This document shows, in pieces, positions 11,600 through 30,189 of a stretch of DNA of 32,000 nt. Position numbers and translations under genes: made by a program. The DNA is from Candidatus Saccharimonadota bacterium (lineage in GTDB: Bacteria > Patescibacteriota > Patescibacteriia > 2-12-FULL-60-25). The notes beneath the pieces were generated by a model. It saw nothing but the letters and a program-made list of their open reading frames with translations, was not told the DNA's origin and made no database searches. Numbering within the stretch: position 1 is the stretch's first letter; the number at the start of each line of letters is the position of its first letter. Location: NCBI GenBank assembly GCA_022843095.1, contig JALHOH010000001.1, positions 240,001-272,000 of the forward strand. Reading direction: 5' to 3'.

Positions 11600-13462
11600 A
11601 TGACGCCACTTCGTGTTCACGTATCTCTCCTTATGAAATCCGCGTGGTTCACCGCGATCGGTGCTCTTTGTGCCGCGTTTGTGTTCATCGTGAGCGCCTC
11701 CACGGCGGCTGCGCAATCGGCGTGCATTTATTCCTGCACGAACGGGTCCTCGACGCAGGCGCTGGTGGCGGATTGCGGAACCTGCAAAGCCACCTGCTTT
11801 GCGGGCTGTGCAGGTACGACCGGCGCAAAACCGGCGGCCGGATGTTACGCCTGGCGGTGTGGTACGCAGTCCGAACAACCGAATGGCGACAACTGTCCGG
11901 TGAACCTGTTGAATCAAACGCTTCCGGCAAACATGGGGGATACGGCGGCTGCTATCCAAGATCGTGCCTCAACGCGTCAGGTCCCGACCGGAATGTTTTC
12001 GTGCCGCACGCCGTTGGATGCGGCGGATCAGGGGCAGAATTGTTTGTCACAATCCGTGTGTGGGGGCGGACGTCAGTGCTGTGTGCCGAACGATCGTCGA
12101 ACCTGTGCCCAGGTGCTCGAGGCGACCGCCGCACCGGGATCGTTGACCAGCGTGCGCGACGAACTCACACGCATCGAACGTAGTACCAACACGAATCGTT
12201 CGCAGTTTTATTGTCAGAACCCCCCACGTGATTCCGCGAATCATCGCTGTTATAACCTTGCAACGCCGAACGGATGTCCCGGGCAGGCCGGCGCAAAATG
12301 CTGTGCCCCAGAAGACGCCATCGGTGGTCTTGCGTGCGGAACGGCGGCCGGAGGGGCGGTTGCTTCTCAGGTGACGCAACTGCAGGATCGTTCGCGTACA
12401 CAAGCGAACGAATGGTATTGCCAGCTTGCGCTTGCAAGCAAAGGTATCAACGCCTCGGAGCACTGCCTTGCTACCAACACGTTGTGCCGTGGACAGTACA
12501 AATGCTGCGTGACGCCGGAAGCCCGCACCGCGATGGGATCATCTGCGGGATTGCCCCCGACGACGTCCTGTGTGGAGCGTGCCGCGCGCATGGGGAATCG
12601 GGGTGATGTGGAAGGCGCGGCGGATCTTATCTTGCAACAGGCAAAACAGGCGGCCGGAAATCCGGCAGGTTTTGATGCGCAGTACACGCGTGCCACCGGA
12701 TTTGAATGTTTGCGTGCCTGTATTCCAGCGGATACGCAGCGTTTTTGCGTGGGTGGAGGGAATGGGTGTGATGGCGCCGGCGTGCAGTGTTGTCTGACAA
12801 CGGCGTTTTCACGGTTGCAGGTGGCGACCCCGCAAAATGTCTGTCCCGCAGGAACGACGGGCGGATCCACAACCGGCGGCGCGGGAACGGGCGGAGCCGG
12901 AACGGGAGCGCCGTCCGCAGGGGGTCGTGCCGGAGAGTCTTCTCCGGGCGTTACGGGCCGATTGGTGTTGCCCTCGTGCATCCAAAGTGGAAACTGCGAA
13001 CTGAGTGATATTTTGCGCACCGGTGCCTCGTTTGCGAATTTTATCTTCGAATTGTCCGGCGCCATTTTCCTGCTCATGTTTGTGGTGGGCGGGATCATGT
13101 ATCTGCTCGCAGGTGTGGATTCCAGTTATCCGAAAAAGGGGAAGGAGTTTATTGTGACGAGTGCGATCGGGATGATCATCATTTTTGGTGCCGCCGCGAT
13201 CGTGCGGTATGTGTATGGGACGTTGACGCAGCGCGCCGATCCAACCGAATCCACCTGCGAACGCCAATTTGCGGCAGAAGGGTTCCGCTGCAGCTATGTC
13301 CCCGGAACAACCGCTCAGGAGATTGCACAATCCGTGGACCAGATGGGATGCAAGTCTGAATTGAATTTGTGTAATTTGGACGGACAGGATCGCAATATCC
13401 GGTGCTGCCCGACGTATGGATCCGGTGAACCAACCGGAACGCGTCCTCCCGCAACACGTTAA
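11600..13462 (+). CDS. Cys-rich surface protein (620 aa) with a VirB2/TrbC-like two-helix membrane hairpin near the C-terminus (array member A)
   Basis: Signal peptide ..MKSAWFTAIGALCAAFVFIVSASTAAAQ (alternative start 11633). About 430 aa of Cys-rich ectodomain, then a Gly/Thr linker. The hairpin FANFIFELSGAIFLLMFVVGGIMYLLAG-VDSSYPKKGKEF-IVTSAIGMIIIFGAAAIVRYV is homologous to the C-termini of the next five genes. One further Cys-rich unit follows the hairpin. Confidence 0.75.
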   Translation: MTPLRVHVSLLMKSAWFTAIGALCAAFVFIVSASTAAAQSACIYSCTNGSSTQALVADCGTCKATCFAGCAGTTGAKPAAGCYAWRCGTQSEQPNGDNCPVNLLNQTLPANMGDTAAAIQDRASTRQVPTGMFSCRTPLDAADQGQNCLSQSVCGGGRQCCVPNDRRTCAQVLEATAAPGSLTSVRDELTRIERSTNTNRSQFYCQNPPRDSANHRCYNLATPNGCPGQAGAKCCAPEDAIGGLACGTAAGGAVASQVTQLQDRSRTQANEWYCQLALASKGINASEHCLATNTLCRGQYKCCVTPEARTAMGSSAGLPPTTSCVERAARMGNRGDVEGAADLILQQAKQAAGNPAGFDAQYTRATGFECLRACIPADTQRFCVGGGNGCDGAGVQCCLTTAFSRLQVATPQNVCPAGTTGGSTTGGAGTGGAGTGAPSAGGRAGESSPGVTGRLVLPSCIQSGNCELSDILRTGASFANFIFELSGAIFLLMFVVGGIMYLLAGVDSSYPKKGKEFIVTSAIGMIIIFGAAAIVRYVYGTLTQRADPTESTCERQFAAEGFRCSYVPGTTAQEIAQSVDQMGCKSELNLCNLDGQDRNIRCCPTYGSGEPTGTRPPATR

Positions 13463-13472
13463 TGACTGCTTT

Positions 13473-14324
13473 ATGACATTTCGCGCCTCAATCTTGTGGA
13501 ATGTGGTGATCGGTGTGTTTGCGATGATCGTTGGAGGACTGGGAATGTTTCCATCATCTGCCGCGGCGCAGGTTGCGCCATCCGTGTGCGTGGCTGTTTG
13601 TACAAATGGATACGCCTACACCAATAAGGGCACGTCAGCACCATCCTGTCGTACGTGGATGGATTGTTCTGCGTTTTGTCGTGCACAATGCAGAAATACC
13701 GATCGCGCCTGTGATCGGCAGGGTGGTTCTTCGATCGGTCCGGACGTTGCGGGAACGCCGGAAGGGGTCCGGTGCGTCATCGATCGTCCAACGGTTGTCC
13801 CAGAATCAGTGACCGGGACGCGTGGCACCTGTGGGTACCAATGTATCGGTGGTTTTGCGGATAGTCTGCCAAGCAATACGCCACAGGTTGTGCAGCAATG
13901 TGTGGGAGATAATTGGTGTCAGGATTTGTGCCACATCACCTGTGCCGCGCAGGCAACGGCACGTTGTGCGGGAACGGCGCCGCGGTGTATCGCGACTCCG
14001 GGGCGTCCAACGTCGACCGTTTCTGGTGGAACCGGTGGAAGCGCGGGAACGTCTGCGCGATTGGATAATCCGCTGGGTGTGACAACCTGGCAGGGTCTGA
14101 TTGGAAAACTGATTCGCGCGTTGATTGGGGTCGCCGGTTCGATCGCGCTGGCAGCGTTTGTCTGGGGTGGGGTGTTGTACATGACCGCACGTGGAGAAAA
14201 AGATCAGCTTAAACAGGCAAGAGAAATATTGGTCAACGCCGTCATTGGGCTTGTCCTGATTTTCTTTTCGTACAGTATCATCGCCACCTTTTTGAACATC
14301 TTTACGACGACGGCAACGTCGTAG
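13473..14324 (+). CDS. Cys-rich surface protein (283 aa) with a C-terminal VirB2/TrbC-like hairpin (array member B)
   Basis: Start chosen at MTFRASILWNVVIGVFAMIVGGLGMFPSSAAAQ (signal peptide). Two Cys modules. C-terminus: LIRALIGVAGSIALAAFVWGGVLYMTARGEKDQLKQAREILVNAVIGLVLIFFSYSII. Confidence 0.75.
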   Translation: MTFRASILWNVVIGVFAMIVGGLGMFPSSAAAQVAPSVCVAVCTNGYAYTNKGTSAPSCRTWMDCSAFCRAQCRNTDRACDRQGGSSIGPDVAGTPEGVRCVIDRPTVVPESVTGTRGTCGYQCIGGFADSLPSNTPQVVQQCVGDNWCQDLCHITCAAQATARCAGTAPRCIATPGRPTSTVSGGTGGSAGTSARLDNPLGVTTWQGLIGKLIRALIGVAGSIALAAFVWGGVLYMTARGEKDQLKQAREILVNAVIGLVLIFFSYSIIATFLNIFTTTATS

Positions 14325-14330
14325 CGCGTT

Positions 14331-15344
14331 ATGTTATTCTCCTCCATTCGTCAGGGGATCATCGTGGTTGCCCTCGCGTTGTCACCCGTGCTGGTTCAGG
14401 CGCAAGCCGCCCCGGCTCGTGATCCATTCGAGACGGTCCAGGCGCAAAATTATTGCGTGTTTCGATGTGATACGGGTTCCGCGTCCGGTTCCGCCTCAGA
14501 AGAATATGGAAAGTGGCATGCAGAGGCCATGCCGCAAGATCAGTGTCGGCCAAATTGCAGCACGCGGTGTGATTCAGTCTGTGGACAAGTGACGGTGCAG
14601 GCACCGGGTTCCACCTCGCGCACCACCGCACCGACGCGTCGAGGACAGCCGCGCACGAGTGGCGGAACGGCGGCAGCGCCCGAACAAACCACGGCGCGCT
14701 GTTCACTGAATTCAGGAACAAACACCAACTTGTCGCCGATCTGTGTAAATTACGATCCAATCGGTCAGGCGCAATCAGCACAATCATCAGGCGGACAGGT
14801 TTCGGGAACGCCGGGGATTTGTGTGTTTCGCTGTGCAGGGCAAACGAATTGGCAGGCCGCGCAAATGAATCAGTGCAATCCGCAAGGGTGTCAGTCGCGG
14901 TGTAATTTGATCTGTGGAGGAACGGCCTGCACGGCCGAATCCGCCATGTGTCAGCCATTGCCTGGGGTCGGAAGTCCGAGTTTTCCGCAAACAACGACCG
15001 GCCCGCAAGGAGGATCTGCCCCTTCCGATCAAACCCAGGCGCGCCAAGCGCAGTCACTTGGATTTGGGTTACGTGATCCGCTGGGCGGCGTTTCAATACA
15101 ACGTTTAATTGCCGGACTCATTCGCTTCGTGATCGGGATGATCGGCGCGTTATTCTTGGGATTGTTTGTGTGGTCGGGTGTCCAATGGATGACGGCCGGA
15201 GGCGAGGCGGACAAGGTGAGTGAAGCAAAGCAAACCATGGTGAATGCGACGATCGGGATGATTATCGTCATCGGTGCGTGGACGCTTGTAAGCCTTGTGA
15301 TCGACTATTCCAATGAGGTGTTACGCGCGTCGCAAGGGGGATAA
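14331..15344 (+). CDS. Cys-rich surface protein (337 aa) with a C-terminal VirB2/TrbC-like hairpin (array member C)
   Basis: Signal MLFSSIRQGIIVVALALSPVLVQAQA. Two Cys modules, each beginning CVFRC. C-terminus: LIRFVIGMIGALFLGLFVWSGVQWMTAGGEADKVSEAKQTMVNATIGMIIVIGAWTLV. Confidence 0.75.
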   Translation: MLFSSIRQGIIVVALALSPVLVQAQAAPARDPFETVQAQNYCVFRCDTGSASGSASEEYGKWHAEAMPQDQCRPNCSTRCDSVCGQVTVQAPGSTSRTTAPTRRGQPRTSGGTAAAPEQTTARCSLNSGTNTNLSPICVNYDPIGQAQSAQSSGGQVSGTPGICVFRCAGQTNWQAAQMNQCNPQGCQSRCNLICGGTACTAESAMCQPLPGVGSPSFPQTTTGPQGGSAPSDQTQARQAQSLGFGLRDPLGGVSIQRLIAGLIRFVIGMIGALFLGLFVWSGVQWMTAGGEADKVSEAKQTMVNATIGMIIVIGAWTLVSLVIDYSNEVLRASQGG

Positions 15345-15434: not shown

Positions 15435-15845
15435 ATGACAGCTCGTATGAAGCAGTTGGTCGGATTTGCCGCCTCCTTGGGGTTATCCCTTTCGATGGCG
15501 ATGCCGGCCATCACGCACGCAGCACTTTCGCAATCCGAAGCCGATAAGGTGTTCGGTATTAGCGCGGTACAAGACAGCGGTTTGAAGCTCGGAGCTGGTG
15601 ACGTTCGCGCAACCGCGGGACGCATCATCAACGTCGCGCTCGGATTCCTCGGAATCATCGCCGTCGTTATCGTTCTTGTTGGTGGGTTCAAGTACATGGT
15701 GTCCGGTGGCAGTGAAGAAAAGACGCAAGAAGCGCGCAACTTGATTTTCGCTGGGGTCATTGGTCTCGCGATCATCTTGTCCGCCTGGGCAATCACGCAG
15801 TTTGTGATCCGCCAATTGATCGACGCCACGCAGAACGCCAGTTAA
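15435..15845 (+). CDS. small VirB2/TrbC-like (T4SS pilin-like) protein, 136 aa (array member D)
   Basis: Signal peptide ..SLSMAMPAITHA, a short mature N-terminus, then IINVALGFLGIIAVVIVLVGGFKYMVSGGSEEKTQEARNLIFAGVIGLAIILSAWAITQFV. It has the best Shine-Dalgarno sequence in the window. Confidence 0.8.
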   Translation: MTARMKQLVGFAASLGLSLSMAMPAITHAALSQSEADKVFGISAVQDSGLKLGAGDVRATAGRIINVALGFLGIIAVVIVLVGGFKYMVSGGSEEKTQEARNLIFAGVIGLAIILSAWAITQFVIRQLIDATQNAS

Positions 15846-15856: not shown

Positions 15857-16339
15857 ATGAGATTTCGCTTCCGCCAGTTTTTGGCACTCTCCGTTGTCGC
15901 GGCCCTTTGGGTGCCGCAGCTTGCGTTTGCACAGGCGACAGGTGGTACGGCGCCGGCACCGGCGCGGGCGTCAATTACGACCGCGAACACGGGGCTTGAT
16001 GCCGCCGCCGCGAACACGGGTCTTTCCAATGCGTGCCAAGGTGCGCAGGGGTCAGCCTGTGTCGCGCGGATCATGGGCGGCCTCATCAACATTGTGTTGA
16101 GCTTGGTCGGCTTTCTGCTCCTCTTTTATCTGTTGTACGGTGGCATCCTTTGGATGACTTCCGGCGGCGATACGGAGGGGGTGCAAAAGGCAAAAACCAT
16201 GATTCAGAACGCCGTCGTCGGAATGATTATTCTGGGCGCGTCGTTTGCCATCTCCAGTTTCGTGCTGTCGCAACTCGCGACGGCGTTTGGAGAGCCCGCT
16301 GCTTCGGCACCCGAGGCACCGGCCTCTCCGGGACCGTAA
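15857..16339 (+). CDS. small VirB2/TrbC-like (T4SS pilin-like) protein, 160 aa (array member E)
   Basis: Signal MRFRFRQFLALSVVAALWVPQLAFA. Hairpin: LINIVLSLVGFLLLFYLLYGGILWMTSGGDTEGVQKAKTMIQNAVVGMIILGASFAISSFV. The tail is Ala/Pro-rich. Confidence 0.8.
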   Translation: MRFRFRQFLALSVVAALWVPQLAFAQATGGTAPAPARASITTANTGLDAAAANTGLSNACQGAQGSACVARIMGGLINIVLSLVGFLLLFYLLYGGILWMTSGGDTEGVQKAKTMIQNAVVGMIILGASFAISSFVLSQLATAFGEPAASAPEAPASPGP

Positions 16340-16361: not shown

Positions 16362-16754
16362 ATGAAGCATCTGAAGACGTCGCTCGCATCCGCCTCGGCA
16401 TTCGTGCTCGGCGTTGCGGCACCGGCGGTTACATTGGCGGCGGGCAATCCGTTCACCAAGGCCGGCCAGTATTCGTCCGACATCAAGACGGCGTCTGGCG
16501 TGCAGGGCTCGGATAACTTGACCCAGATCATCGGCAACATCATCAACGTGTTGCTTGGGTTCTTGGGGATCTTGCTCTTGGCCTACATGTTGTACGCCGG
16601 TTTCCTCTGGATGACGGCCATGGGCGATTCCGACAAAGTGGATGAAGCCAAGACGATCATCAAGAACGCGGTCGTCGGTCTCATCATCATCGCCGCGGCC
16701 TTCGCCATCAGCAACTTCGTGTTGCAGCAATTGGTGACGGTCACGGGTGCGTAA
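16362..16754 (+). CDS. small VirB2/TrbC-like (T4SS pilin-like) protein, 130 aa (array member F)
   Basis: Signal MKHLKTSLASASAFVLGVAAPAVTLA. Hairpin: IINVLLGFLGILLLAYMLYAGFLWMTAMGDSDKVDEAKTIIKNAVVGLIIIAAAFAISNFV. Confidence 0.8.
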   Translation: MKHLKTSLASASAFVLGVAAPAVTLAAGNPFTKAGQYSSDIKTASGVQGSDNLTQIIGNIINVLLGFLGILLLAYMLYAGFLWMTAMGDSDKVDEAKTIIKNAVVGLIIIAAAFAISNFVLQQLVTVTGA

Positions 16755-16779
16755 CCCGTTCGCTGCGCAGCGAAGCATA

Positions 16780-16811
16780 CGATCCTCGGCAACGGGGATC
16801 GTTTGTTTTTT
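16780..16811 (+). terminator. intrinsic terminator ending the pilin-like array
   Basis: Stem CGATCCTC pairs with GGGGATCG (8 bp, one G-U pair), loop GGCAAC, then TTTGTTTTTT. Confidence 0.7.
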
Positions 16812-16816
16812 GTATT

Positions 16817-16879: not shown

Positions 16880-17752
16880 TCAGTACCCGCAGACGTGTGT
16901 CACACCTGCGGGGGTGGTGCTTCCTTGCGCTTCGGTCGTATACGATCCCATCGGGACGTACTGACCGACCGCGTTCCGGAGGAAGCACTGGAACGTGAGG
17001 CTGACACGTCGGCCGGTCATGTTCTCGACCCAGCCGTCGTATCCGAAGGTGTTTGCGGGGTTGCCCGGAGGGGCGCCCCACATCACGTTCCCGAATGCGT
17101 CGGTGATGCCGAGCGGGATACCGCCCTGCATCGGGATCGCGCGTCCGTTCGTGAGCACCGCGACCACGTACTGTGGTCCGATGCGCAAGCGGAGCGGGAT
17201 TTGCGTCACCTGCGTCGGGTCCGGGGGACCCAGCTGGATCTGTCCGACCGGCGCGAGCCCCATCGGGTTCACGCGGCCGAGAAATACCTGCTGCTGCGGG
17301 GGCATTTGGTTGCCCATCGGCATCATGCCGCTGGTCCACGCCTGCGACCCAGGCGGCACGTGTGCCGCCTGCTGCGCCGTGGGCTGCGCATCCTGCGCTG
17401 CCGTGCGCGTCTCTCGACGCGGGAGACGCGGGGCGCTCTCGCCGAGCGATCCGCACCCCTCTGCCGGAATGAGCGCGCGAAGCTCTTCGCATCGCGCGCC
17501 CTGGCACTGGCGCCCCGCCCGCTCGTCGAACCCCGCTTGCGCGAGGTAGCAGGCGCGGACGAGGTTGCTTTGCAGCAACTGCTCGTTCGTCCGCGCCTCC
17601 TCGTCGGCGCGACGAGTCGCCTCGACCAAGCGATCCGGGGAGATGGACTCCCTGGACTCCGTGGTCGGCAGCGTCGCGTTGCCGTTACTGCCCGCACCCG
17701 TCGTGGCGCAGGCGGTGAAGAACAAGAATGCGAGAACCAGGATCGTCTTCAT
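16880..17752 (-). CDS. hypothetical lipoprotein (290 aa) with a Gln/Pro/Met-rich central segment
   Basis: MKTILVLAFLFFTAC is a lipoprotein-type signal (Cys15). The central segment reads SGMMPMGNQMPPQQQVFLGRVNPMG. I recognise no family. The opposite-strand ORF of similar length is Arg-rich nonsense. Confidence 0.6.
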   Translation of the reverse strand: MKTILVLAFLFFTACATTGAGSNGNATLPTTESRESISPDRLVEATRRADEEARTNEQLLQSNLVRACYLAQAGFDERAGRQCQGARCEELRALIPAEGCGSLGESAPRLPRRETRTAAQDAQPTAQQAAHVPPGSQAWTSGMMPMGNQMPPQQQVFLGRVNPMGLAPVGQIQLGPPDPTQVTQIPLRLRIGPQYVVAVLTNGRAIPMQGGIPLGITDAFGNVMWGAPPGNPANTFGYDGWVENMTGRRVSLTFQCFLRNAVGQYVPMGSYTTEAQGSTTPAGVTHVCGY

Positions 17753-17823: not shown

Positions 17824-18621
17824 CTAACGTCGCGGGCGGCGTGAGTGGCGCATCAGGGTGGTGATGTCGCCACGGAGGCGTTGGACTTCTTGCTCCAACG
17901 CGCTGCCACCGGACGAACCCGGCACGTACGCGCCGCCCGTTCCGGACGACACGTTACCGACCACGAACGTGGTCCGGTACCCCATGACGGGTTGCGGCAA
18001 AAGCCCGCAGGTTCCGTCGAGGGAGGGGAGCGGCGATCCTGGGCATCCGCCCATGCCACCGAATCCGCCGTTCACGGCACCTGGCCAGCCGAAGCCGCCA
18101 GTGACCATGCCCGGCATCATGCCCATCCCGCCGAATCCGCCGAGCATCCCCATGCCCGCCCCGTTCCAGAGGAGTTGATTCCCCTGGACGGCGAACTCGC
18201 GTCCGAACTGGCTCATGAGCCAGGCGACGCAGAGCTGCTGAAGCGGCGATGCCCACGGCGCGGTCATGGTGACCGTGTCCGCGCGGGTCTGAATCCCGGA
18301 GCGGATCTGCATCCAGCTTCCGTCGTCCACGTCCAGGCACCGCTGTGCCATGGACGACCCGGTGGTATCCACGTGGGTCACGCCCCCCAGGATCCCGGAG
18401 ACCGAGGTCCCGGATCCGGACGTCGTCCGCACCGTGTTCACGTAACAGCTGCTCACGCTAAGCGCGAGCAGCGCCGTCACCACCACGAACGCGATGCGTC
18501 GCGGCAAGAGTCGCGCGCGCGGCATGCGCTGATTCAGGTGCCACCAGAGAAGAACGGCACACATGCCGTTCAGAATTGCCGCCAGGACAAACAGTCCCGC
18601 GGCGAGATGAGCACTGTTCAT
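17824..18621 (-). CDS. hypothetical membrane protein or lipoprotein (265 aa) with a Gly/Met-rich tract
   Basis: Start chosen at MNSAHLAAGLFVLAAILNG.. (a hydrophobic helix). An alternative start at the complement of 18523-18525 gives MPRARLLPRRIAFVVVTALLALSVSSC, a textbook lipoprotein signal with a VSSC lipobox. The low-complexity tract is GAGMGMLGGFGGMGMMPGMVTGGFGWPGAVNGGFGGMGGCPG. The C-terminus is basic. Confidence 0.55.
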   Translation of the reverse strand: MNSAHLAAGLFVLAAILNGMCAVLLWWHLNQRMPRARLLPRRIAFVVVTALLALSVSSCYVNTVRTTSGSGTSVSGILGGVTHVDTTGSSMAQRCLDVDDGSWMQIRSGIQTRADTVTMTAPWASPLQQLCVAWLMSQFGREFAVQGNQLLWNGAGMGMLGGFGGMGMMPGMVTGGFGWPGAVNGGFGGMGGCPGSPLPSLDGTCGLLPQPVMGYRTTFVVGNVSSGTGGAYVPGSSGGSALEQEVQRLRGDITTLMRHSRRPRR

Positions 18622-18821
18622 GACGTCTCGCTTTCCGGGGCGTTTGCCCCAGGGTTGTTGATTGTCGAAGACCGGAATCCATCTGAGAAACACTCCCAGT
18701 AGGAACGTCGTAGCATACCCGAAAACGGGGATTTTGTCAAGCGTCTCACCACGCCTGTTTTGCCTAAAACTAGAAGAACTTTGTCCTTTTTTGGTTGTTT
18801 TACAGAAAATGTTCAGCACGA

Positions 18822-18850
18822 TTGACAAAATTGCTGTTTTTTGCTATGTT
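18822..18850 (+). promoter_or_regulatory. sigma70-type promoter for the 18944/19946 gene pair
   Basis: TTGACA (18822-18827), a 17-nt spacer, then TATGTT (18845-18850). This is the closest match to the -35/-10 consensus in the window. Confidence 0.55.
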
Positions 18851-18912
18851 CAAACGTCTTCTGGCGACCAGGTGTTGCCAGAAGGCCCAACGTATTTTCA
18901 CAACACACACGT

Positions 18913-18933
18913 TGGCGCCATCGCATGGCGCCA
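18913..18933 (+). promoter_or_regulatory. twin palindromic octamers TGGCGCCA-tcgca-TGGCGCCA (operator-like site or 5'-UTR hairpin)
   Basis: Two exact copies of a self-complementary 8-mer, 13 bp centre to centre. The second copy ends where the Shine-Dalgarno AGGAG (18933-18937) of the ATG at 18944 begins, sharing one A. Confidence 0.4.
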
Positions 18934-18943
18934 GGAGAAAAAG

Positions 18944-19930
18944 ATGGCCAAAAAAAATGGTGATGGGGGTGAGGGAAGCGATTCCCTCTCCGGCGATGTC
19001 GGCCGGGTCGTGATGCGTGTGCTGATGAAACAGCTCGTGTCGCGTCTTTCCGGCGGGTGGACCAAGGATGGATCGATCGTGAAGGATGTATTCACGGCGG
19101 GCATCCCGGAGCTCATCGGCTGGAGTGATAGCTCCGAAGGGGCGCTGCAGGGGGCGGTCGAAGCCTCCTACGAACCCATTCGAGCAAAGCTTTTCAACCG
19201 ATGGGCGCAGGTCGCCAAGACCCGTGGCATTTCACCAGACGAGCCGCTCAAGATCACGGACATCGACCTCCTCGCAGGGGACGATGCGTTGATCAAGAGC
19301 ATCACCGGAGTCATCCGCGACAAGTACGCGGAACTTCGGAAGGAGCAGCTGTCGAATCCTACGCTGGCCCGGCTGGAGAAACTGCTTGGATCGCGTCTAA
19401 AGGTCGTTTGGCGCGCCTACAAGACCTACCTGAAGGATCCGTCCGATGCGGACGTGGATCCGAAGGGCGAGAAGACGCCCGACGAACGCGCGGAGGCCAA
19501 GAAGGAGCTGAAAAGCCGATATGACGAGATCGTCAAAGGCGAGCAGAAGGTTTCCTTCGGTCAGGTGGAGGCGTTTCTCGATCGGTTCCTCGATGACGGT
19601 GACGTAGCCGCGCTGCGAAAGGCGCTGAACAACGTCATCAAGTTCAAAGAAGAACCGAAAGGTAAAGCTGCCTTCGAATCCTTGACCGGGATCAAGGTGA
19701 AGGATCTCCAGAGCGACCCGGGGAAGGTGCTGAAGAATGTGTTCGGTGGCGGCAAAGCCGCAGCCGCGACACGTGAGCTCAAGCACGCGGCCCAGCGTTC
19801 TGACGAGTATTCTCGTCGGTACGCGATCGAGAAAAGCGCGGGGCCGATGGCGCCGGCGCACGAAGAAGATGATCTTCGTGCGCGGTTCTGGCTCGTGCGT
19901 CTCTGGCGCTGGTTGAAAAACCTTTTTTAG
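18944..19930 (+). CDS. hypothetical Lys/Glu-rich helical protein (328 aa) with a C-terminal amphipathic Trp/Arg/Leu helix
   Basis: Start chosen at MAKKNGDGGEG, with AGGAG 6 nt upstream. The track ORF's upstream 94 aa span the promoter. The C-terminus is RARFWLVRLWRWLKNLF. I recognise no family. Confidence 0.6.
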   Translation: MAKKNGDGGEGSDSLSGDVGRVVMRVLMKQLVSRLSGGWTKDGSIVKDVFTAGIPELIGWSDSSEGALQGAVEASYEPIRAKLFNRWAQVAKTRGISPDEPLKITDIDLLAGDDALIKSITGVIRDKYAELRKEQLSNPTLARLEKLLGSRLKVVWRAYKTYLKDPSDADVDPKGEKTPDERAEAKKELKSRYDEIVKGEQKVSFGQVEAFLDRFLDDGDVAALRKALNNVIKFKEEPKGKAAFESLTGIKVKDLQSDPGKVLKNVFGGGKAAAATRELKHAAQRSDEYSRRYAIEKSAGPMAPAHEEDDLRARFWLVRLWRWLKNLF

Positions 19931-19945: not shown

Positions 19946-22030
19946 ATGGCAGACGATAAAAAGCAGAATGCGGCGGACGCCCTCATGGATTGGGTGCCGC
20001 CGATCGCGGGTGCAGCAGCACTCGCGACGAATGCGGAGCTTCGGAACGGCATCGCGCTGTTCCGCAACGCGGGGGTTGGCGCCCTCGTCGAGTTCAAGGG
20101 CAAATGCGAGCGCTGGGTGTGGTGGAACGCCACGGCCCTTGCGCGCGCCTTCGCGAACGCTACGCACATCGCGGCGTGGGTGCTGATTCTGGCAGACGTG
20201 TTCGGCCAATACGCAGCGCTCATGGGGACGCATGGCGTCCGCATGCCGGGGGTGTTGTGGGGGGTGCCGCTCGCGGCGCTCCTCCTCAACATCTTCTGCG
20301 TAATCCTTCCCATCTGGTGGGTGATCCACCGGACCATGGGCACGGAAGCCATTCCGTGGTCGTGGGAGCTCACGGCTGATCTCGCCTTCCCGGCGCGAGA
20401 AGACGCAGAGACTGATGTGGTCTTTGCGCAGCGTCTGCGTGCGCAAGTGCAAGCCTTGCGTGGGCGGATCTGCACGCTCGCACTCGATCTCGCGATCGAC
20501 CCTCGGCGGCGCGTGTGGCGACAGAATGTCGTCACGTGGCTCCAGGGGGAGATCATGCGTCTCGATCCGGCTCTGGCTCCGCCCTTGCCGGTGAATGCGC
20601 CGACGGTCGAAGACGTCGAGCGGTTCACTACGGCGGCGCAGCGTGCGTGGGCGCTACACACGACGACTGCGAGCGATCAGCAGGCACTCGACCTCCTGGA
20701 GGTCGAGCGGGTTGCGCTTGGGCGTCGGCTTCGGCTGATGCACGATGACGCGACGCGTCGCCAGTTTGGCGAACGGGGAAACCCGCTTCTCGCCATGGCG
20801 GTGCTGATCTGCGCCGTCACGGCAAAGGGGGTGCTCGCCATGGAGTGGCGTTCACTCGTCCTGAACTACGTCTGCGATGTGCAGGCGTTGACCTCAGTGA
20901 TCCCGTGGCTCGTGGGGATGGGGGCGCTCGTCCTCTTCTTCATCCTCGGAAAAACGACGGTGGTCGCGATTCATCTGCTGGCATCTGCCGCGGATGCGAT
21001 CGGGATGACTGCGACCGAGTTCTTCCGGGGCCTCGCGGTGGCAGCACCTGGGATCACCTCGGAGAACGTCGACAGCAAGCTTCCGAAGGTCGATTGGAAG
21101 ATCAATCTCATCACCTTCAAATGGGAGTTGATCTTCGACGAGATCTGGTACGCTGGAATCGGCGCAGGGATGATCGTGCTGCATGCGGTGTCGCCGCTTT
21201 GGAGCACGGGAATCTTCGTCCTCGGGATCGGCTCGTCGCTCGGTGTCTATCTGCTGAAGAAGCGAGGCATCGATGTTCTGGGCAAGGAGCAGAATCGAGC
21301 ACATGCGCTGTATTGGATCTTCGGGATCCTGGCAGGCGCGCTCGTATTCTTCTCCCTGCTGAACATGACCTTCGGCTGGTGGACGCGTCCGACGTTTACC
21401 GGTGCGATGGTGGCACTCCAGGGCGGGGAACTGCTCTGGGTCGCGGGAAGCGACATCCTCAAGCTCCTCGCGTTTCCGTTCGTCGGGATCGCGATCGTGC
21501 TTGCGACCCTCGGGATGTGGTTCTTCACGCTCGGGTGGCTCGGTTTCTTTCTCGTGGGCTTTGTCCTCGCGGTTCTTCTCTTCCAACTGGGGCATTGGAG
21601 CCCGGAAGGGAACGCGCGGTGGCTGAAGTACGCGGGGATGACGCTCGCCGGTCTCGCGATGCTCGTCTTGATCGGCGGGCGTGCGCAGCAGATCGACGGA
21701 CGTTCGCTCACGGAGCGCAGTCGGATGGTGGGGGTTGCGTCGGGAGCGATTCCCGCGCCGCCTCCGCCGTCGACCCCTCCGGATGATCAGCGCGGACCGA
21801 TTCGTCACGCGTGGGATCGCATGATGGGAACGGCGCCCTGGATCAACTGGGGATCGTCGTCTTCCGGAAGCGATACCCGTGCGGTGTCGTCTGCGCCGGC
21901 GGCGACCCTGTCGTCGTCACGGCATTCGCAGGAGCGCTACTATCGCCCGGACGAGAATCCTCCCTGCGAGGACCTCGACGGTGACGAAGAGTATCGCGCC
22001 ATGATTCGGCGCAACGGGATGTGTCACTAA
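19946..22030 (+). CDS. hypothetical polytopic membrane protein (694 aa, ~10 predicted TM helices, ~150-aa soluble Arg/Leu-rich insert, Pro/Ser-rich tail)
   Basis: AAGGAG lies 7 nt upstream of the ATG, and the start is 15 nt after the previous stop. There are many long hydrophobic runs (e.g. VLWGVPLAALLLNIFCVILPIWWVI, LLAFPFVGIAIVLATLGMWFFTLGWLGFFLVGFVLAVLLF). The tail contains APPPPSTPP. I recognise no family. Confidence 0.7.
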   Translation: MADDKKQNAADALMDWVPPIAGAAALATNAELRNGIALFRNAGVGALVEFKGKCERWVWWNATALARAFANATHIAAWVLILADVFGQYAALMGTHGVRMPGVLWGVPLAALLLNIFCVILPIWWVIHRTMGTEAIPWSWELTADLAFPAREDAETDVVFAQRLRAQVQALRGRICTLALDLAIDPRRRVWRQNVVTWLQGEIMRLDPALAPPLPVNAPTVEDVERFTTAAQRAWALHTTTASDQQALDLLEVERVALGRRLRLMHDDATRRQFGERGNPLLAMAVLICAVTAKGVLAMEWRSLVLNYVCDVQALTSVIPWLVGMGALVLFFILGKTTVVAIHLLASAADAIGMTATEFFRGLAVAAPGITSENVDSKLPKVDWKINLITFKWELIFDEIWYAGIGAGMIVLHAVSPLWSTGIFVLGIGSSLGVYLLKKRGIDVLGKEQNRAHALYWIFGILAGALVFFSLLNMTFGWWTRPTFTGAMVALQGGELLWVAGSDILKLLAFPFVGIAIVLATLGMWFFTLGWLGFFLVGFVLAVLLFQLGHWSPEGNARWLKYAGMTLAGLAMLVLIGGRAQQIDGRSLTERSRMVGVASGAIPAPPPPSTPPDDQRGPIRHAWDRMMGTAPWINWGSSSSGSDTRAVSSAPAATLSSSRHSQERYYRPDENPPCEDLDGDEEYRAMIRRNGMCH

Positions 22031-22312: not shown

Positions 22313-22507
22313 TTACACGTTCGTCGCTTCTTCCCAGAGCGCCAGTTCGCGCATCGCGGCATCCACCTGCGTTTCGACCCCATCCACGTCTAAATCATCC
22401 GATGCCAGAATAAAATGGTTGATGAGTGTCGCGCGGCATTCGGCGCGAGGCCGTACCGAACCGTCTTCGTTTAGACAGAGGGCGCGTAACGAGGCGAGAT
22501 CCTGCAT
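22313..22507 (-). CDS. small acidic hypothetical protein (64 aa)
   Basis: MQDLASLRALCLNEDGSVRPRAECRATLINHFILASDDLDVDGVETQVDAAMRELALWEEATNV. A hairpin lies downstream. There is no clear Shine-Dalgarno sequence and I recognise no family. Confidence 0.35.
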   Translation of the reverse strand: MQDLASLRALCLNEDGSVRPRAECRATLINHFILASDDLDVDGVETQVDAAMRELALWEEATNV

Positions 22508-22554
22508 ATGAAAAAAGCATAGCAAAAAAGCGAGAATATGCGTACCATGCCGAC

Positions 22555-23727
22555 ATGTCTCACACGCGCTGGATCCGCTTCTTGCTGACGCTCCTCCCGG
22601 CGGCCTTGCCGTTGTATGTGGTGCGTTTTTCGGTGGGACCGCTTCCCACGACGGCAGTAGAGGCGTATGTCGTGGTGATCGCTCTCGTCTTCATCGGGAC
22701 GTATCAACGAGCTGCATGGAAACACTTGTGGAATGCGCTGGGTCCCTGGCGTGCGCCGCTTGTTGCGTGGACCGTGGTGACCGGAGTTGCTGCGCTGTAC
22801 GCACCGGATCTATGGAAAGGGATCGGTCTGTGGCGGGCGTTTGTGTTGGAGCCCCTTTTGGTCTTTGGCATGATGCGTGCCGCGCTTGAGGAGCGGGATC
22901 GATCGCATCTCGAGGATGTCGCATGTGCTACGGCGGTTGGAGTCGCGACCTGGGGGGTGATCCAATACCTCACCGGCTGGGGGATTCCGGCGCCATGGAA
23001 TGTGTCGATGGAGGCAGGTCGTCGTGCCACGGGTCCGTTTCCGTATCCAAATGCGCTTGCGTTGTTTGTGGTTCCAATCGCCGCGTATGCCTGGCAACGG
23101 TTGTGGCATGCCGCGTGGATGGATGGTGGGATGAAGCGTTTGGTTCTGATCGTGACGTGGATCATGGGGTGGGTGGCGTGTTTGGTTGCTCAAAGTGATG
23201 GTGGGTTCGTCGCACTCGGAGCCGCTACGGTGTTTGTGATGTTGTGGTATCCGATGGGCCGACGCCTGGTCGTGGTTGGAGGGGTGATCGGATCGCTTGT
23301 CCTAGCGATTGCGCCACCCCTGCGTGAAAAGGTATGGCGTGAGGTCACGTTGCAGGGGTGGTCAGGGACGGTGCGTCGGTATCAATGGCGTGAAACCACG
23401 GACATGCTGCGTGACCATTGGGCGCTTGGCGCGGGGATGGGGGGCTATCCCACGGTGTTTGCGCCGTACCACAAGGCAACGGCGATCGAGATTTTTCAAT
23501 ACCCGCACAACATCTTGCTGAACGTGTGGGTGGAGGCGGGGATTGCCGGGGTGCTTGTGATGACGTGGCTTTTAGGGAAATGGGGACGTGATGCGGGATG
23601 GCGAGGAATGGCGCCGCTCGTGGCTCTGTTGGTGCACGGGTTGGTCGATGTGCCGTTTTTCAAGAATGACCTTGCGATGGCCTGGATGATCCTCCTCCTG
23701 TTGACCACCCGCCCAACCCCACGTTAG
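22555..23727 (+). CDS. O-antigen ligase/polymerase family (Wzy_C-type) integral membrane protein
   Basis: Start chosen at MSHTRWIRFLLTLLPAALPLYVV. About 10 TM helices. An extracytoplasmic loop carries RRATGPFPYPNALA, and the later motif YPHNILLNVWVEAGIAGVLV is typical of the O-antigen ligase family. Confidence 0.7.
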   Translation: MSHTRWIRFLLTLLPAALPLYVVRFSVGPLPTTAVEAYVVVIALVFIGTYQRAAWKHLWNALGPWRAPLVAWTVVTGVAALYAPDLWKGIGLWRAFVLEPLLVFGMMRAALEERDRSHLEDVACATAVGVATWGVIQYLTGWGIPAPWNVSMEAGRRATGPFPYPNALALFVVPIAAYAWQRLWHAAWMDGGMKRLVLIVTWIMGWVACLVAQSDGGFVALGAATVFVMLWYPMGRRLVVVGGVIGSLVLAIAPPLREKVWREVTLQGWSGTVRRYQWRETTDMLRDHWALGAGMGGYPTVFAPYHKATAIEIFQYPHNILLNVWVEAGIAGVLVMTWLLGKWGRDAGWRGMAPLVALLVHGLVDVPFFKNDLAMAWMILLLLTTRPTPR

Positions 23728-24068: not shown

Positions 24069-24156
24069 AAAACATCCCGCATGTCGCGGGGTGTTTTTGT
24101 AATCCAGCGTTATTCCCAAAATAGGAACAGGTGCGTTATACTTGTTTCAACTCTGT

Positions 24157-24552
24157 ATGCCAAAATCCTCGAAACCGCTCATCCTTGTCGTGGAAGACGA
24201 TCGCTTTTTGATCAAAGCCTTTCAGGCAAAGCTCGCAACAACGTCCTACGAAACTGCAACGGCAAACGATGGTGAAGAAGCGATCGCGTTCTTGAAGCAT
24301 CGCAAACCGGACCTCATGTTGCTTGATATCGTCATGCCAAAAAAGGACGGGTTTGCGGTGTTGGAAGAGATGCAAAAGAATCCGGCTTGGAAAAAAATTC
24401 CCGTCATTATTCTTTCGAACCTCGGACAAGAGTCTGACCGGGAAAAGGGGAAAGCGCTTGGAGCCGTCGATTTTTTGGTGAAAACCGATTTTTCTCTCCA
24501 GCAGATCTTAACGGTTTTGGACAAATACGTTTCTAAAAAGAAGACCGCATGA
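24157..24552 (+). CDS. stand-alone response-regulator receiver domain (CheY-like)
   Basis: ILVVEDD, phospho-acceptor context DLMLLDIVMP, ILSNLG, and DFLVK (conserved Lys). 131 aa with no output domain. Its stop overlaps the pilB ATG (ATGA). Confidence 0.85.
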   Translation: MPKSSKPLILVVEDDRFLIKAFQAKLATTSYETATANDGEEAIAFLKHRKPDLMLLDIVMPKKDGFAVLEEMQKNPAWKKIPVIILSNLGQESDREKGKALGAVDFLVKTDFSLQQILTVLDKYVSKKKTA

Positions 24553-26231
24553 AGGCACTTTCCATTGAACAGCTGGAAAAGCTGTTTGTGGGCGGCGATT
24601 TTTTGAAGCCGACGGAATTTGCGTTGGTGAAAGAGAAGGCGGGCGGAACGGGGATGTCCATCCCGGATGCCGTGGTGGATTTGGGATATCTTTCCGATGC
24701 TCAGGTCGGGCGATTAATCGCGGAAGAGCTCGGGTATCGATTTGTGGATTTATTGAAAACGAAAATCGATCATCCAACGCTGCATTTGTTGCCAGAGGCG
24801 GCCGCCATTTCGCAAAAGACCGTGATTTGGAAGCGGAATGCCGAAGGGGTGTTTGTGGCGACCACGGATCCAGATAATTTGGAGTTTCTGCGGTTGCTTA
24901 AAAAACGCTTTCGAGAACCGGTAATGGTTGCGTTCGCGACGAAGTACGGGATCACGGAAGCGCTCCGGGGGTATCAAAAAGACTGGATTGACCAAATCGT
25001 GGCGCGCTTGGAAAAAATGAAGGTGAATCCGCAGGATGAAGACGTGGTTTCGCTGGTGCAGCTCGTTCTTTCCGCTGCATATGAACAGCGCGCGTCTGAT
25101 ATCCACATCGAGCCGGAGCGGGAAGAGGCGGTGGTGCGATTTCGTATCGACGGTGTCATGCAGGAACGCGTCCGGTATCCCATCGCGTTTCATGAGAAAG
25201 TCGTCTTTCGTATCAAGATTTTGGCGCGATTGCGTACCGACGAACATGCTTCAGCGCAGGACGGTCGGTTTGAGCTGCGTGTGGGGCCAAACCTCCTGAA
25301 CGTCCGTGTCTCTATTTTGCCTATTACACATGGCGAAAACGTCGTGATGCGTTTGTTGTCCGAGCAATTTCAGCGATTGCGCTTGGAAGATTTGGGGATG
25401 CAGGAGGATGATCTAGAGCGGATTAAGCGCGCTGCAGAACTTCCGCATGGAATGATCTTGGCAACTGGTCCGACGGGTTCTGGGAAAACCACAACGCTGT
25501 ATGCCGTCATTCACATTTTGAATCAGCCCGATGTAAACGTGATGACCATTGAGGATCCGGTCGAATACGATATTTCCGGCGTGCGTCAGATTCAGGTGAA
25601 CCCGCGTACAAACCTGACCTATGACGCGGGGCTTAAATCCATCGTGCGCCAAGACCCGGATGTCATCATGGTTGGAGAAATTCGTGATGCCGAAACCGCC
25701 GGGATCGCCGTGAACGCCGCATTGACGGGGCACCTCATGCTCTCGACGCTGCACTCGAATGATGCGCCGACGGCGTTTCCACGTTTGGCGGAAATGGGAA
25801 TTGAGCCGTTTTTGGTCGCGTCTTCGGTGAACGTCATTGTTGGGCAACGTCTGGTGCGACGCATTTGTTCGGATTGCTTGGGGAGTTATCAGCTCTCGGA
25901 AGAAGAATATGAAGCAGTATCACAAGATTCGGCGCTTCTTGCTCTCATCCGTAAGATTGGCGGAAAAAAAGATCTTGCGCGAACGCAGTTTTATAAAGGA
26001 ATGGGATGCACCGCTTGCGGACATACGGGGTATCGCGGTCGAAGCGGGTTGTTTGAAGTGCTGCAGGTCTCTGAATCTTTGCGTCCGCTGATTGTGAATA
26101 AAGCGACGTCGTTGGATATTCGGTCATTGGCGATCAAAGAGGGGATGCGTACGATGGTCGAAGACGGAGTGGAGAAGGTGTTCAAAGGGGTGACTACCAT
26201 CATGGAGGTGTTGCGTGCGACAAAAGCATAA
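24549..26231 (+). CDS. pilB: type IV pilus assembly ATPase (GspE/PilB family)
   Basis: N-terminal T2SSE_N-like domain. Walker A GPTGSGKTTTLYA. Asp/His boxes (IMVGEIRD, LTGHLMLSTLHSND). Tetracysteine motif CSDC..CTAC. Confidence 0.9.
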   Translation: MKALSIEQLEKLFVGGDFLKPTEFALVKEKAGGTGMSIPDAVVDLGYLSDAQVGRLIAEELGYRFVDLLKTKIDHPTLHLLPEAAAISQKTVIWKRNAEGVFVATTDPDNLEFLRLLKKRFREPVMVAFATKYGITEALRGYQKDWIDQIVARLEKMKVNPQDEDVVSLVQLVLSAAYEQRASDIHIEPEREEAVVRFRIDGVMQERVRYPIAFHEKVVFRIKILARLRTDEHASAQDGRFELRVGPNLLNVRVSILPITHGENVVMRLLSEQFQRLRLEDLGMQEDDLERIKRAAELPHGMILATGPTGSGKTTTLYAVIHILNQPDVNVMTIEDPVEYDISGVRQIQVNPRTNLTYDAGLKSIVRQDPDVIMVGEIRDAETAGIAVNAALTGHLMLSTLHSNDAPTAFPRLAEMGIEPFLVASSVNVIVGQRLVRRICSDCLGSYQLSEEEYEAVSQDSALLALIRKIGGKKDLARTQFYKGMGCTACGHTGYRGRSGLFEVLQVSESLRPLIVNKATSLDIRSLAIKEGMRTMVEDGVEKVFKGVTTIMEVLRATKA

Positions 26232-26252
26232 GGGCGAGCCACCTGTTCGGTG

Positions 26253-26261
26253 TGCTATACT
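26253..26261 (+). promoter_or_regulatory. extended -10 promoter TGcTATACT 6 nt upstream of the pilC ATG
   Basis: TATACT at 26256-26261 and ATG at 26268, with no Shine-Dalgarno sequence. This implies a leaderless start. Confidence 0.5.
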
Positions 26262-26267
26262 GACCGC

Positions 26268-27341
26268 ATGCGCTTTACGCGGTTGTTCTTGCAACGCTTT
26301 TTTCATCGCGAGTTGGTGGAATTTTTTAAGAACCTCGCACTCATGGCGGAATCGGGCATTCCGTTGAATGAATCGCTCCATGTCCTCGAAGAACAGGCGC
26401 GTTCCTCTGTATTTCGGAATTTTTTACACGATGTCCGTCGGCAGGTCGAAGAAGGAAGTCCGCTTTCGAAGGCGATGTTGCTGTATCGCGAAGACATCGG
26501 CGACTTGGCGCTCAATGTTATTCGTGCGGGTGAGGTGAACGGGACGCTGGAGCAAAACTTTCGGTATCTCGCCGATATTTTGCAGCGACGTCGTGAGCTC
26601 AAGGAAAAAATTAATGGAGCGTTGCTGTATCCCGAAATCGTTCTTGGACTCGTGTTTTTGCTAGGAGGTGCCATCTCCATCTTCATTCTTCCAAAACTCA
26701 TCCCCTTGTTTCAGTCGTTGAACGTCGCATTGCCACTTTCGACGCGCATGTTGCTTGGGATTTCTGTGTTTCTCCAAGAAAATGCCGCCTTGGTGTTTGT
26801 GGGGATGATCTCGGTGATCGTGTTGCTGATCGGGTTAGCGCGGTTTCATCCGGTCCGGTATGCCCTTCATACCGTCCAACTTCATCTTCCGTACTTTGGA
26901 CGCTTATCGCAGAACTATCAGCTTGCGTTGTTTGCACAAATCTTTGGAACGTTGTTTCGAAGCGGGTTAACCATTCGTGAAACGCTTACGGTGACAACGG
27001 ATGCGCTCACCAATTTTCGCTATCGCGCCGTGTTGCGGCAGGCGGCAAAGCGATTGGTTGCAGGTATTCCATTGGGCGCAATTTTAAGTAAATTCCCGAA
27101 CTTTTTTCCGCAAAACTTGATCGCGCTCATTTCGGTCGGTGAACAATCCGGGAAACTGGATGAATCGTTCAAGTATTTGGCGACCTATTACGATCACGAA
27201 GTGGATGTCCAAACCAAGCGGTTGCCAACCATGCTCGAACCGATCCTGCTTGTGATCATTGGTGTCGTTGTGTTGTTCGTGTCGTTGGCCATTCTTACCC
27301 CGATTTATGAAATTACGAGCGGGATCAATGCCGGGCGATAA
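26268..27341 (+). CDS. pilC: type IV pilus platform protein (GspF/PilC family)
   Basis: Two GspF-type repeats (..AESGIPLNESLHVLEE.. and ..RSGLTIRETLTVTTDA..) and three TM segments. I preferred ATG 26268 over the track's GTG at 26250 because of the promoter position. Confidence 0.85.
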   Translation: MRFTRLFLQRFFHRELVEFFKNLALMAESGIPLNESLHVLEEQARSSVFRNFLHDVRRQVEEGSPLSKAMLLYREDIGDLALNVIRAGEVNGTLEQNFRYLADILQRRRELKEKINGALLYPEIVLGLVFLLGGAISIFILPKLIPLFQSLNVALPLSTRMLLGISVFLQENAALVFVGMISVIVLLIGLARFHPVRYALHTVQLHLPYFGRLSQNYQLALFAQIFGTLFRSGLTIRETLTVTTDALTNFRYRAVLRQAAKRLVAGIPLGAILSKFPNFFPQNLIALISVGEQSGKLDESFKYLATYYDHEVDVQTKRLPTMLEPILLVIIGVVVLFVSLAILTPIYEITSGINAGR

Positions 27342-27780: not shown

Positions 27781-27798
27781 GCGTCGTCATCAAAGATT

Positions 27799-27807
27799 TG
27801 GTATACT
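27799..27807 (+). promoter_or_regulatory. extended -10 promoter TGgTATACT 6 nt upstream of the ATG at 27814
   Basis: TATACT at 27802-27807, with no Shine-Dalgarno sequence. Confidence 0.5.
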
Positions 27808-27813
27808 GACCCT

Positions 27814-29758: not shown

Positions 29759-29761
29759 ATG

Positions 29762-29770: not shown

Positions 29771-29778
29771 GTGCCCGG

Positions 29779-30186: not shown

Positions 30187-30189
30187 TGT

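Follow-up and report, generated by a model that had tools for sequence, protein, structure and literature searches.

What is a cysteine-rich pattern that recurs five times in three adjacent genes of a Patescibacteria genome, and on what kind of protein is it carried? The question is raised by a 32,000-nucleotide stretch of Candidatus Saccharimonadota bacterium (contig JALHOH010000001.1, positions 240,001 to 272,000; hereafter the window, in whose own coordinates all positions are given), where a first-pass annotation had pointed to a recurrent six-cysteine module in genes A, B and C. Here we describe this element as an eight-cysteine module and its carriers as the three leading members of a six-gene operon, A to F, of VirB2-like pilin paralogs. 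We read it as a disulfide-stapled, fast-evolving alpha/beta module for display or adhesion, borne on exported extensions of the leading pilins, and put the probability of this reading at about one half.

A regular-expression scan of the translated genes A, B and C returned five exact matches to CX3C...C-x(2-5)-C-X3-C-X3-C, in the genes and at the spacings first reported. The spacing of these six Cys had been read correctly; the unit itself is larger, as two more Cys follow in every copy, and the full spacing is C-x3-C-x(12-25)-C-x(2-5)-C-x3-C-x3-C plus two later Cys at looser spacing. The copies, delimited by the regular expression and the Cys positions, are listed below with their cysteines numbered Cys1 to Cys8; residue numbers for gene B follow its 302-residue product.

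11723..11860 (+), module A1 of gene A: Cys1 to Cys6 at 11723-11809 (residues 42-70); eight Cys at residues 42, 46, 59, 62, 66, 70, 82 and 87.
13587..13775 (+), module B1 of gene B: Cys1 to Cys6 at 13587-13691 (residues 58-92); eight Cys at residues 58, 62, 78, 84, 88, 92, 99 and 120.
13830..13988 (+), module B2 of gene B: Cys1 to Cys6 at 13830-13943 (residues 139-176); eight Cys at residues 139, 143, 162, 168, 172, 176, 184 and 191.
14454..14744 (+), module C1 of gene C: Cys1 to Cys6 at 14454-14582 (residues 42-84); eight Cys at residues 42, 46, 72, 76, 80, 84, 124 and 138, with a long insertion before the final two.
14820..14951 (+), module C2 of gene C: Cys1 to Cys6 at 14820-14915 (residues 164-195); eight Cys at residues 164, 168, 182, 187, 191, 195, 200 and 207.

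From first to last Cys, the three compact copies span ~45 residues and the two with insertions 63-97; a hidden Markov model (HMM) of the module scores the individual copies at 38-80 bits, with A1 at 38 bits. The Cys1 starts had been placed correctly at first pass, but the ends given there as 13712, 13988 and 14951 reach beyond the sixth Cys, stopping at the seventh in the first copy of B and at the eighth in the second copies of B and C. When each protein was shuffled 5000 times with its own residues, gene A gave a mean of 0.0034 matches and reached its observed single copy in 0.34% of shuffles; the two copies observed in B were reached in 0/5000 shuffles, and likewise in 0/5000 for C. The pattern in B and C is therefore not a mere reflection of Cys-richness. 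A six-frame scan of the window revealed no sixth copy.

The strongest evidence for a constrained unit comes from an orthologous locus (L119, the source of protein P0004; 2794 nt, GC 0.60), on which the tail of a B-like gene precedes C', D', E' and F', matching the B-C-D-E-F order of the window. Amino-acid identity to the window is 58% for the tail of B, 39% for C, 72% for D, 54% for E and 59% for F. Between C and C', identity is 28% for the non-Cys residues of the modules, 25% for the linkers and 59% for the pilin part, and yet the Cys positions, whose conservation in orthologs had been named at the outset as a test of the pattern, are kept 16/16 in this one ortholog, all eight in each module; were Cys retained no more often than the 28% background, this outcome would have a probability of ~1.4e-9. 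In a strain variant of gene B (L001; 92.6% DNA identity) only 9 residues differ, and the ratio of nonsynonymous to synonymous substitution rates (dN/dS) is 0.05 overall and 0.03 in the ectodomain. Judged from these comparisons, the modules are real, translated and under purifying selection, and their Cys, the sole invariant residues, form a fixed framework.

These results bear directly on the suspicion that no functional domain exists at all, and that the pattern arose by chance in Cys-rich low-complexity sequence, from a wrong reading frame, or as a precursor of the sactipeptide/SCIFF type. The linkers flanking the modules are indeed of low complexity, and C-X3-C-X3-C spacing is known in sactipeptide precursors (PMC3132745). 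Set against this are the 0/5000 shuffles for B and C, dN/dS values of 0.03-0.05 and the 16/16 Cys of the ortholog; moreover, Pfam scans of the larger open reading frames (ORFs) of the window contain no radical-SAM gene, NCBIfam (including the TIGR03973 SCIFF criterion) has no match on the module regions, and the modules lie within membrane proteins of 283-620 residues with signal peptides. We therefore treat chance, frame error and peptide precursor as excluded, an explanation with next to no probability left to it.

Both modules of gene C open with the pentapeptide CVFRC (14454-14468 and 14820-14834), as had been noticed at first pass, and both modules of the ortholog open with CIYRC, so the two copies have changed together between species. 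Gene conversion between the two C modules was considered and set aside: their nucleotide likeness is confined to the 15 nt encoding CVFRC, hence there is no extended conversion tract.

What fold might these cysteines hold? AlphaFold2 was run on single modules with an alignment of seven rows, made up of the five window copies and two ortholog copies, and returned the same order of elements, strand-strand-helix-strand, for both modules modelled. The B2 model has strands at 3-10, 23-28 and 49-59 and a helix at 31-43 (mean pLDDT, the predicted local distance difference test, of 66; five models, 40-66), and the C2 model has strands at 3-7, 16-20 and 47-50 and a helix at 25-35 (mean pLDDT 85; five models, 80-85). 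In both, Cys1 lies in the first strand, Cys3 just ahead of the helix, Cys4 and Cys5 on the helix and Cys8 on the final strand. Cys2 is a strand residue in B2 and, in C2, lies two residues beyond the end of the strand; Cys6 sits on the helix in B2 and one residue past the helix end in C2. Only the Cys4-X3-Cys5-X3-Cys6 segment is helical. The module is accordingly predicted by these models to be an alpha/beta mini-domain, not a helical hairpin.

It was the latter, a disulfide-stapled hairpin like that of twin-CX3C proteins, that the first-pass annotation had proposed, with CX3C and CX3CX3C on two antiparallel helices as in the small Tims or the plant alpha-hairpinins. The i/i+4 spacing in both segments and the connector of 12-25 residues do recall the twin CX3C motif, and the alpha-hairpinins are a known CX3C...CX3C helix-loop-helix family (PMC11591084). 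However, both models place the first CX3C in or next to a beta-strand (Cys1 in each, and Cys2 as well in B2), and a second strand precedes the single helix. The residues between Cys1 and Cys2 (VFR, IYR, IYS, VAV and GYQ) belong to the strand-favouring kind, beta-branched or aromatic; no Pfam family, Tim10/DDP and CHCH included, is matched at E<=10; and the module holds eight Cys, not four. A hairpin is thus improbable, and we place it below the other structural alternatives considered here.

Foldseek, at a significance threshold of E<=0.001, found no hits for the B2 model in the PDB, and its best PDB match for the C2 model had E = 1.6 with a TM score below 0.5; against BFVD, the better model (C2) gave a best E = 0.42, which is not significant. 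Since small domains are hard for Foldseek, the claim of a new fold is not established by these searches.

The first-pass annotation, as written, was silent on the nature of the carriers, which turn out to be VirB2-like pilin paralogs (PF18895). The operon is made up as follows.

11600..13462 (+), gene A: 620 residues; PF18895 at 29.1 bits over residues 477-538.
13473..14324 (+), gene B: 283 residues from the ATG at 13473; PF18895 at 33.8 bits.
14331..15344 (+), gene C: 337 residues; PF18895 at 33.8 bits over residues 255-323.
15435..15845 (+), gene D: 136 residues, short, pilin-like and Cys-free; PF18895 at 35.9 bits.
15857..16339 (+), gene E: 160 residues, short and pilin-like with 2 Cys; PF18895 at 25.1 bits, just under the cut-off.
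16362..16754 (+), gene F: 130 residues, short, pilin-like and Cys-free; PF18895 at 40.3 bits.
16779..16812 (+), terminator-like hairpin: 10-bp stem with 6 GC pairs, followed by a T-run; it closes the A-F unit.

The curated gathering cut-off of PF18895 (T4SS_pilin) is 26.6 bits, which five of the six proteins (A, B, C, D and F) exceed; Pfam gives weaker TrbC/VirB2 matches too, and NCBIfam shows only a sub-threshold likeness of the pilin anchors to the Mbov_0395 pilin-like conjugal transfer family. Direct reading and hydropathy show the same plan in each of the six proteins: a hydrophobic signal segment at the N-terminus, ending in an AxA-like site and lacking a twin arginine, and at the C-terminus two hydrophobic helices (TM1 and TM2) linked by a short charged loop, e.g. 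MTAGGEADKVSEAKQ. In protein A, the hydrophobic segments are 10-43, 476-509 and 515-543. Protein C runs from its signal peptide through module C1, a linker rich in S/T/P/G/Q, module C2 and a second linker to the PF18895 hairpin. The succession of a Sec-type signal peptide, the modules and a two-helix pilin hairpin bears out the earlier suggestion that the modules are extracytoplasmic, and by the standard VirB2 topology both protein termini are predicted to lie outside.

The six genes lie on one strand with intergenic gaps of 6-90 nt, except that a start of B at 13416 would make A and B overlap. Two starts can be read for gene B: the first in-frame ATG, at 13416, adds 19 codons, overlaps gene A by 47 nt and is the one used in the NCBI-derived product of 302 residues, and the ATG at 13473, on which the first-pass residue numbers were based, lies 11 nt past the gene A stop and yields a conventional signal peptide. 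The terminator-like hairpin follows the gene F stop codon by 25 nt and faces a convergent gene.

How widespread is the module? No named domain had been recognised at first pass, and the searches agree: Pfam has no family on the A-C ectodomains at E<=10, and its scans of the whole proteins leave the module regions unmatched; no NCBIfam model at E<=0.1 extends over these regions; and a sequence profile search of the PDB with the module gave nothing at E<=10. The search with a profile of the five copies that had been proposed there was run exhaustively against 1.84 billion cluster representatives and returned four hits: B and C themselves, P0003 and P0004. Of these, P0004 is a true C ortholog, matched over two stretches at E = 1.6e-4; P0003, a 1622-residue tandem-repeat translation, was rejected as spurious. 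Protein A was not recovered in this search, so single-copy members can be missed. Word-indexed homolog searches with the B ectodomain, with an alignment of B, C and the ortholog, and with the ortholog ectodomain recovered only self or near-self clusters. A scan of 185,579 species genomes with the leucyl-tRNA synthetase (LeuRS) encoded in the window gave best matches of 53-54% identity, in Magasanikiibacteriota, Saccharibacteria, other Patescibacteria and Bacillota; by regular expression the module is absent from the 80 genome loci found in this way, matches in L010 (an Fe-S-like ORF) and L039 (a junk ORF) having been discarded as not the module. From the sequence itself, a Patescibacteria origin is probable but indirectly supported, by these LeuRS matches, by the VirB2-like array and by the metagenome relatives of its pilin domain. 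Nor was it detected, by regular expression or local HMM, in 35 metagenome loci with pilin arrays. As far as can be seen, the module occurs in the source organism and its strain variants and in a single related species, and nowhere else. It is a new and very rare domain family, although of a familiar kind: a lineage-specific, extracellular Cys-rich repeat borne by carriers of a known class.

The 35 metagenome loci (L082-L116), retrieved by a scan with the pilin alignment, place this rarity in a wider frame, since the closest metagenome relatives of the pilin domain sit in the same kind of array. One to three longer leading genes carry extensions with 4-28 Cys, N- or C-terminal to the hairpin, and short, mostly Cys-free members trail behind them. 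A crude regular-expression detection finds this layout in ~15/23 arrays with at least three members, and the Cys patterns vary from array to array; comparable yet different Cys-rich extensions on the leading members are thus common. A literature search found no paper joining Patescibacteria, pilin and cysteine-rich.

The best matches to the pilin domain are in loci L083 and L084, where the 5' gene carries two N-terminal units of the form CxC...CxxCxxxC...C. Like those of the window, these extensions follow a signal peptide and precede a PF18895-like hairpin, consist of two repeats with even Cys counts, and have a strand-like Cys pair followed by CxxCxxxC, a layout resembling the CIYSC...CGTCKATC of A. 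They differ from the window module in the number and spacing of their Cys. Module 1 of L083 matches module 1 of A by BLASTP at E = 1e-3 in a six-sequence database, and the module HMM has no match in either locus at E<=10; with a BLASTP match this weak, we do not claim homology. In locus L090, two giant proteins of 897 and 2525 residues (ORFs at 7160 and 9863) have a signal peptide and a pilin-like hairpin followed by huge Cys-rich C-terminal regions, the larger one with 146 Cys. They show how far the layout of a pilin anchor plus a Cys-rich extension can go.

Do the eight Cys pair with one another, hold metal, or join subunits? We infer that they form four disulfides within each module. Among 39 Cys-rich extensions of pilin-like proteins in the window and the related loci, the Cys count is even in 36 (36/39; binomial p = 1.8e-8) and a multiple of four in just 25 (25/39). 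Mostly even counts with fewer multiples of four favour disulfides over Cys4 metal sites as a general rule. MdbA-like thiol-disulfide oxidoreductases and VKOR are reported to be enriched in genomes of the candidate phyla radiation (CPR) (10.1101/335083), which makes the formation of extracytoplasmic disulfides plausible in Patescibacteria.

The metal or cluster site that the first-pass annotation had offered as an alternative is formally possible. Eight thiolates would hold two Zn ions, or another metal or cluster, in an extracellular domain that is stabilised by metal or scavenges it. That the Cys are the only invariant residues is in keeping with such a role, as is the habitat of many Patescibacteria, anoxic water, in which disulfides are less favoured. 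Yet direct reading finds no CXXC knuckles, no His partners and no twin-arginine motif. The spacing is unlike the CX2CX2CX3C motif of ferredoxins, without a Pfam Fer4 match, and neither the PDB nor Pfam yields any metal-domain match. Sec-type signal peptides without a twin arginine argue against a cluster assembled before export, and related pilin extensions with 6, 10 or 14 Cys are even in number yet not multiples of four. Metal binding is therefore unlikely in our view; it nonetheless heads the order of the rivals, followed by intermolecular cross-linking and then by the helical hairpin.

Under cross-linking, the Cys would reshuffle into disulfides between subunits and join the pilin-like proteins covalently, giving a tough polymer in the form of a filament or a surface layer. 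In its favour, the protein family of the carriers forms polymers, several of the paralogs encoded together are rich in Cys, and minicollagen domains polymerise through disulfides with a CX3CX3C... spacing like that of the module (PMC4863159). A compact, self-contained fold is, however, predicted by AlphaFold2 for each module, with good confidence for C2; an even number of Cys per module permits full pairing within it; and the likeliest bulk subunits, D and F, are Cys-free. We accordingly give cross-linking little credence, slightly less than metal binding.

Several observations weigh against the disulfide-stapled display module on leading pilins that we prefer. Eight Cys are also two sets of four, compatible with two Zn(Cys)4 sites. 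Pfam scans of the 32-kb window found no VirB4, VirB6 or VirD4, and neither a thiol-disulfide oxidoreductase, for which the first-pass annotation had recommended looking in the genome, nor VKOR; with no oxidising machinery or secretion system in the window, both have to be assumed to lie elsewhere in the genome. By the size expected of a small mature pilin subunit (~70-130 residues), D, E and F (130-160 residues) fit and A, B and C are too long, and A-C may be membrane-anchored surface proteins and not pilus subunits, as N-terminal extensions of 200-450 residues may block VirB2-type filament packing. The AlphaFold2 alignments comprise just seven sequences, and the B2 run is of low to moderate confidence (models 40-66). 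The missing secretion machinery is not in itself disqualifying, because a pilin gene lies near virB4 in just 1135/1948 CPR assemblies with VirB2-like pilins, according to a recent survey (10.1101/2025.01.22.634366).

Under the preferred reading, A-C would be exported by the Sec pathway and their signal peptides cleaved, and the pilin hairpin (TM1, short charged loop, TM2) would anchor each protein with both ends outside the cell. Each module would fold as strand-strand-helix-strand, its eight Cys forming four intramodule disulfides that pin the helix, by its CX3CX3C face, to the strands bearing Cys1/Cys2 and Cys8. Such stapling would give a rigid core that resists proteases, and its surface residues could diverge freely. 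The linkers rich in S/T/P/G/Q would hold the modules off the membrane, or outside a filament built mainly of the Cys-free members among D-F, where they could mediate contact with a host cell or adhesion to it. The invariant Cys, the low identity outside them and linkers of low complexity suit such a rigid core with a variable surface, kept clear of the membrane or filament. Patescibacteria live as obligate or likely episymbionts. From this biology, and from the predicted pilin series in a type IV secretion system (T4SS) cluster that is essential in Southlakia epibionticum (PMC10633639), we infer the host-contact role; A-C may likewise be incorporated into a pilus.

The significance of such a role would lie in host recognition, since how Patescibacteria recognise their hosts is largely unknown, and a VirB2-like pilin series is reported to be essential in the one genetically tractable species (PMC10633639). 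If the Cys-rich extensions are indeed the exposed, rapidly diverging parts, they would be concrete candidates for determinants of host specificity and a handle for predicting host range from metagenomes. We also entertain, as a speculative and on balance doubtful generalisation, that the long Cys-rich leaders of Patescibacteria VirB2-like arrays are undescribed modular, 'capped' pilins, in which the conjugative-type hairpin would be an all-purpose anchor or a handle for polymerisation, and the fast-evolving, disulfide-knotted mini-domains of new folds fused to it, the eight-Cys module among them, would set the choice of host cell for attachment. For work on disulfide-rich scaffolds, there may be interest in a compact module of ~45 residues that apparently holds four disulfides and for which no relative was detected among solved structures. 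One more lineage-specific Cys-rich extracellular domain is, alone, unsurprising; of greater interest is how such arrays are laid out in general, with Cys-rich leaders in front and Cys-free members behind.

Gene A carries, besides module A1, a second type of Cys module with the pattern [FWY]xC-x(10-19)-C-x(5-8)-C-x(5-10)-CC, four copies of which were located by regular expression ahead of the pilin hairpin; a fifth follows from the Cys map and the hydrophobic segments.

11996-12082 (+), second-type Cys module of gene A.
12206-12304 (+), second-type Cys module of gene A.
12413-12508 (+), second-type Cys module of gene A.
12701-12793 (+), second-type Cys module of gene A.
13256..13408 (+), fifth second-type module of gene A: Cys 553-603, after TM2.

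Protein A thus runs from the signal peptide through one eight-Cys module, four second-type modules, a low-complexity linker and the PF18895 hairpin to the fifth second-type module. Because VirB2 topology puts both termini outside, this fifth module is predicted to be extracytoplasmic as well, and protein A would display Cys modules at both of its outward-facing ends. 'C..G..CC' motifs akin to the second-type module occur in a pilin-like protein of locus L085.

By Pfam, the A-F operon is preceded in the window by genes for LeuRS, a GalU-like nucleotidyltransferase and a solute-binding protein, and is followed by a Wzy_C protein, a response regulator and a type IV pilus cluster; VirB3 has no Pfam match in the window.

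24142-31735, type IV pilus cluster: response regulator, PilB (T2SSE), PilC (T2SSF), PilM and pilin-like ORFs.

Four ORFs of this cluster have pilin-like hydrophobic N-termini (one with LVIVD repeats), and there is one N_methyl ORF. The gene for the Wzy_C protein, of the O-antigen ligase family, lies at 22426-23727, after the pilin-like array and ahead of the type IV pilus cluster. The Wzy_C domain is also found in pilin O-oligosaccharyltransferases, PilO/TfpO and PglL among them, and the S/T-rich linkers of A-C would be plausible substrates of this protein. Four ORFs at 16880-17752 (-), 17824-18828 (-), 18662-19930 (+) and 19946-22030 (+) have no significant Pfam or NCBIfam match. They occupy a GC-rich stretch (up to 0.67); one is lipoprotein-like (LFFTAC) and one is a polytopic membrane protein of 694 residues, which might be a divergent VirB6-like component.

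Comparison with known Cys-rich folds turns up likenesses of pattern with clear differences. The module resembles the cysteine-stabilised alpha/beta (CSab) fold of defensins and scorpion toxins, as judged by predicted secondary structure only, in being a small alpha/beta unit in which i/i+4 Cys of a helix face Cys of a strand. The CSab order is, however, (strand-)helix-strand-strand and not strand-strand-helix-strand, and its motifs are CX3C on the helix and CXC on the strand, as opposed to CX3CX3C on the helix and CX3C on the strand in a module of eight Cys. With the twin CX3C proteins (small Tim PF02953, CHCH) and plant alpha-hairpinins, the module shares a CX3C followed after 12-25 residues by a CX3C-bearing segment; it differs from them in having no predicted helical hairpin, eight Cys rather than four and no profile match, and in being bacterial, extracytoplasmic and fused to a membrane anchor. 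In the minicollagen domains (CX3CX3CX3CX3CC), too, consecutive CX3C spacing occurs in a short extracellular module, and the protein that carries it forms polymers (PMC4863159). They are eukaryotic, ~20 residues long and have six contiguous Cys without a strand-strand-helix-strand prediction, so that the likeness is one of pattern only.

The closest known systems are the VirB2-like arrays of Patescibacteria themselves (PF18895/PF04956 TrbC), documented as sets of 2-11 divergent genes and reported as a hallmark of the group (10.1101/2025.01.22.634366). The window shares with them six divergent tandem paralogs, a number within the reported range of 2-11, all of which combine a signal peptide with a two-helix hairpin. 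Neither virB4 nor virB6 occurs in the 32 kb of the window. Members of known arrays have ~130 residues, against 283-620 for A-C, the difference being made up by Cys-rich N-terminal extensions and, in A, a C-terminal one as well; the accessible portions of the papers on these arrays make no mention of such extensions (10.1101/2025.01.22.634366, PMC10633639). Taken together, these comparisons suggest that the window most likely presents a lineage-specific variation on a common theme, and not a new kind of system.

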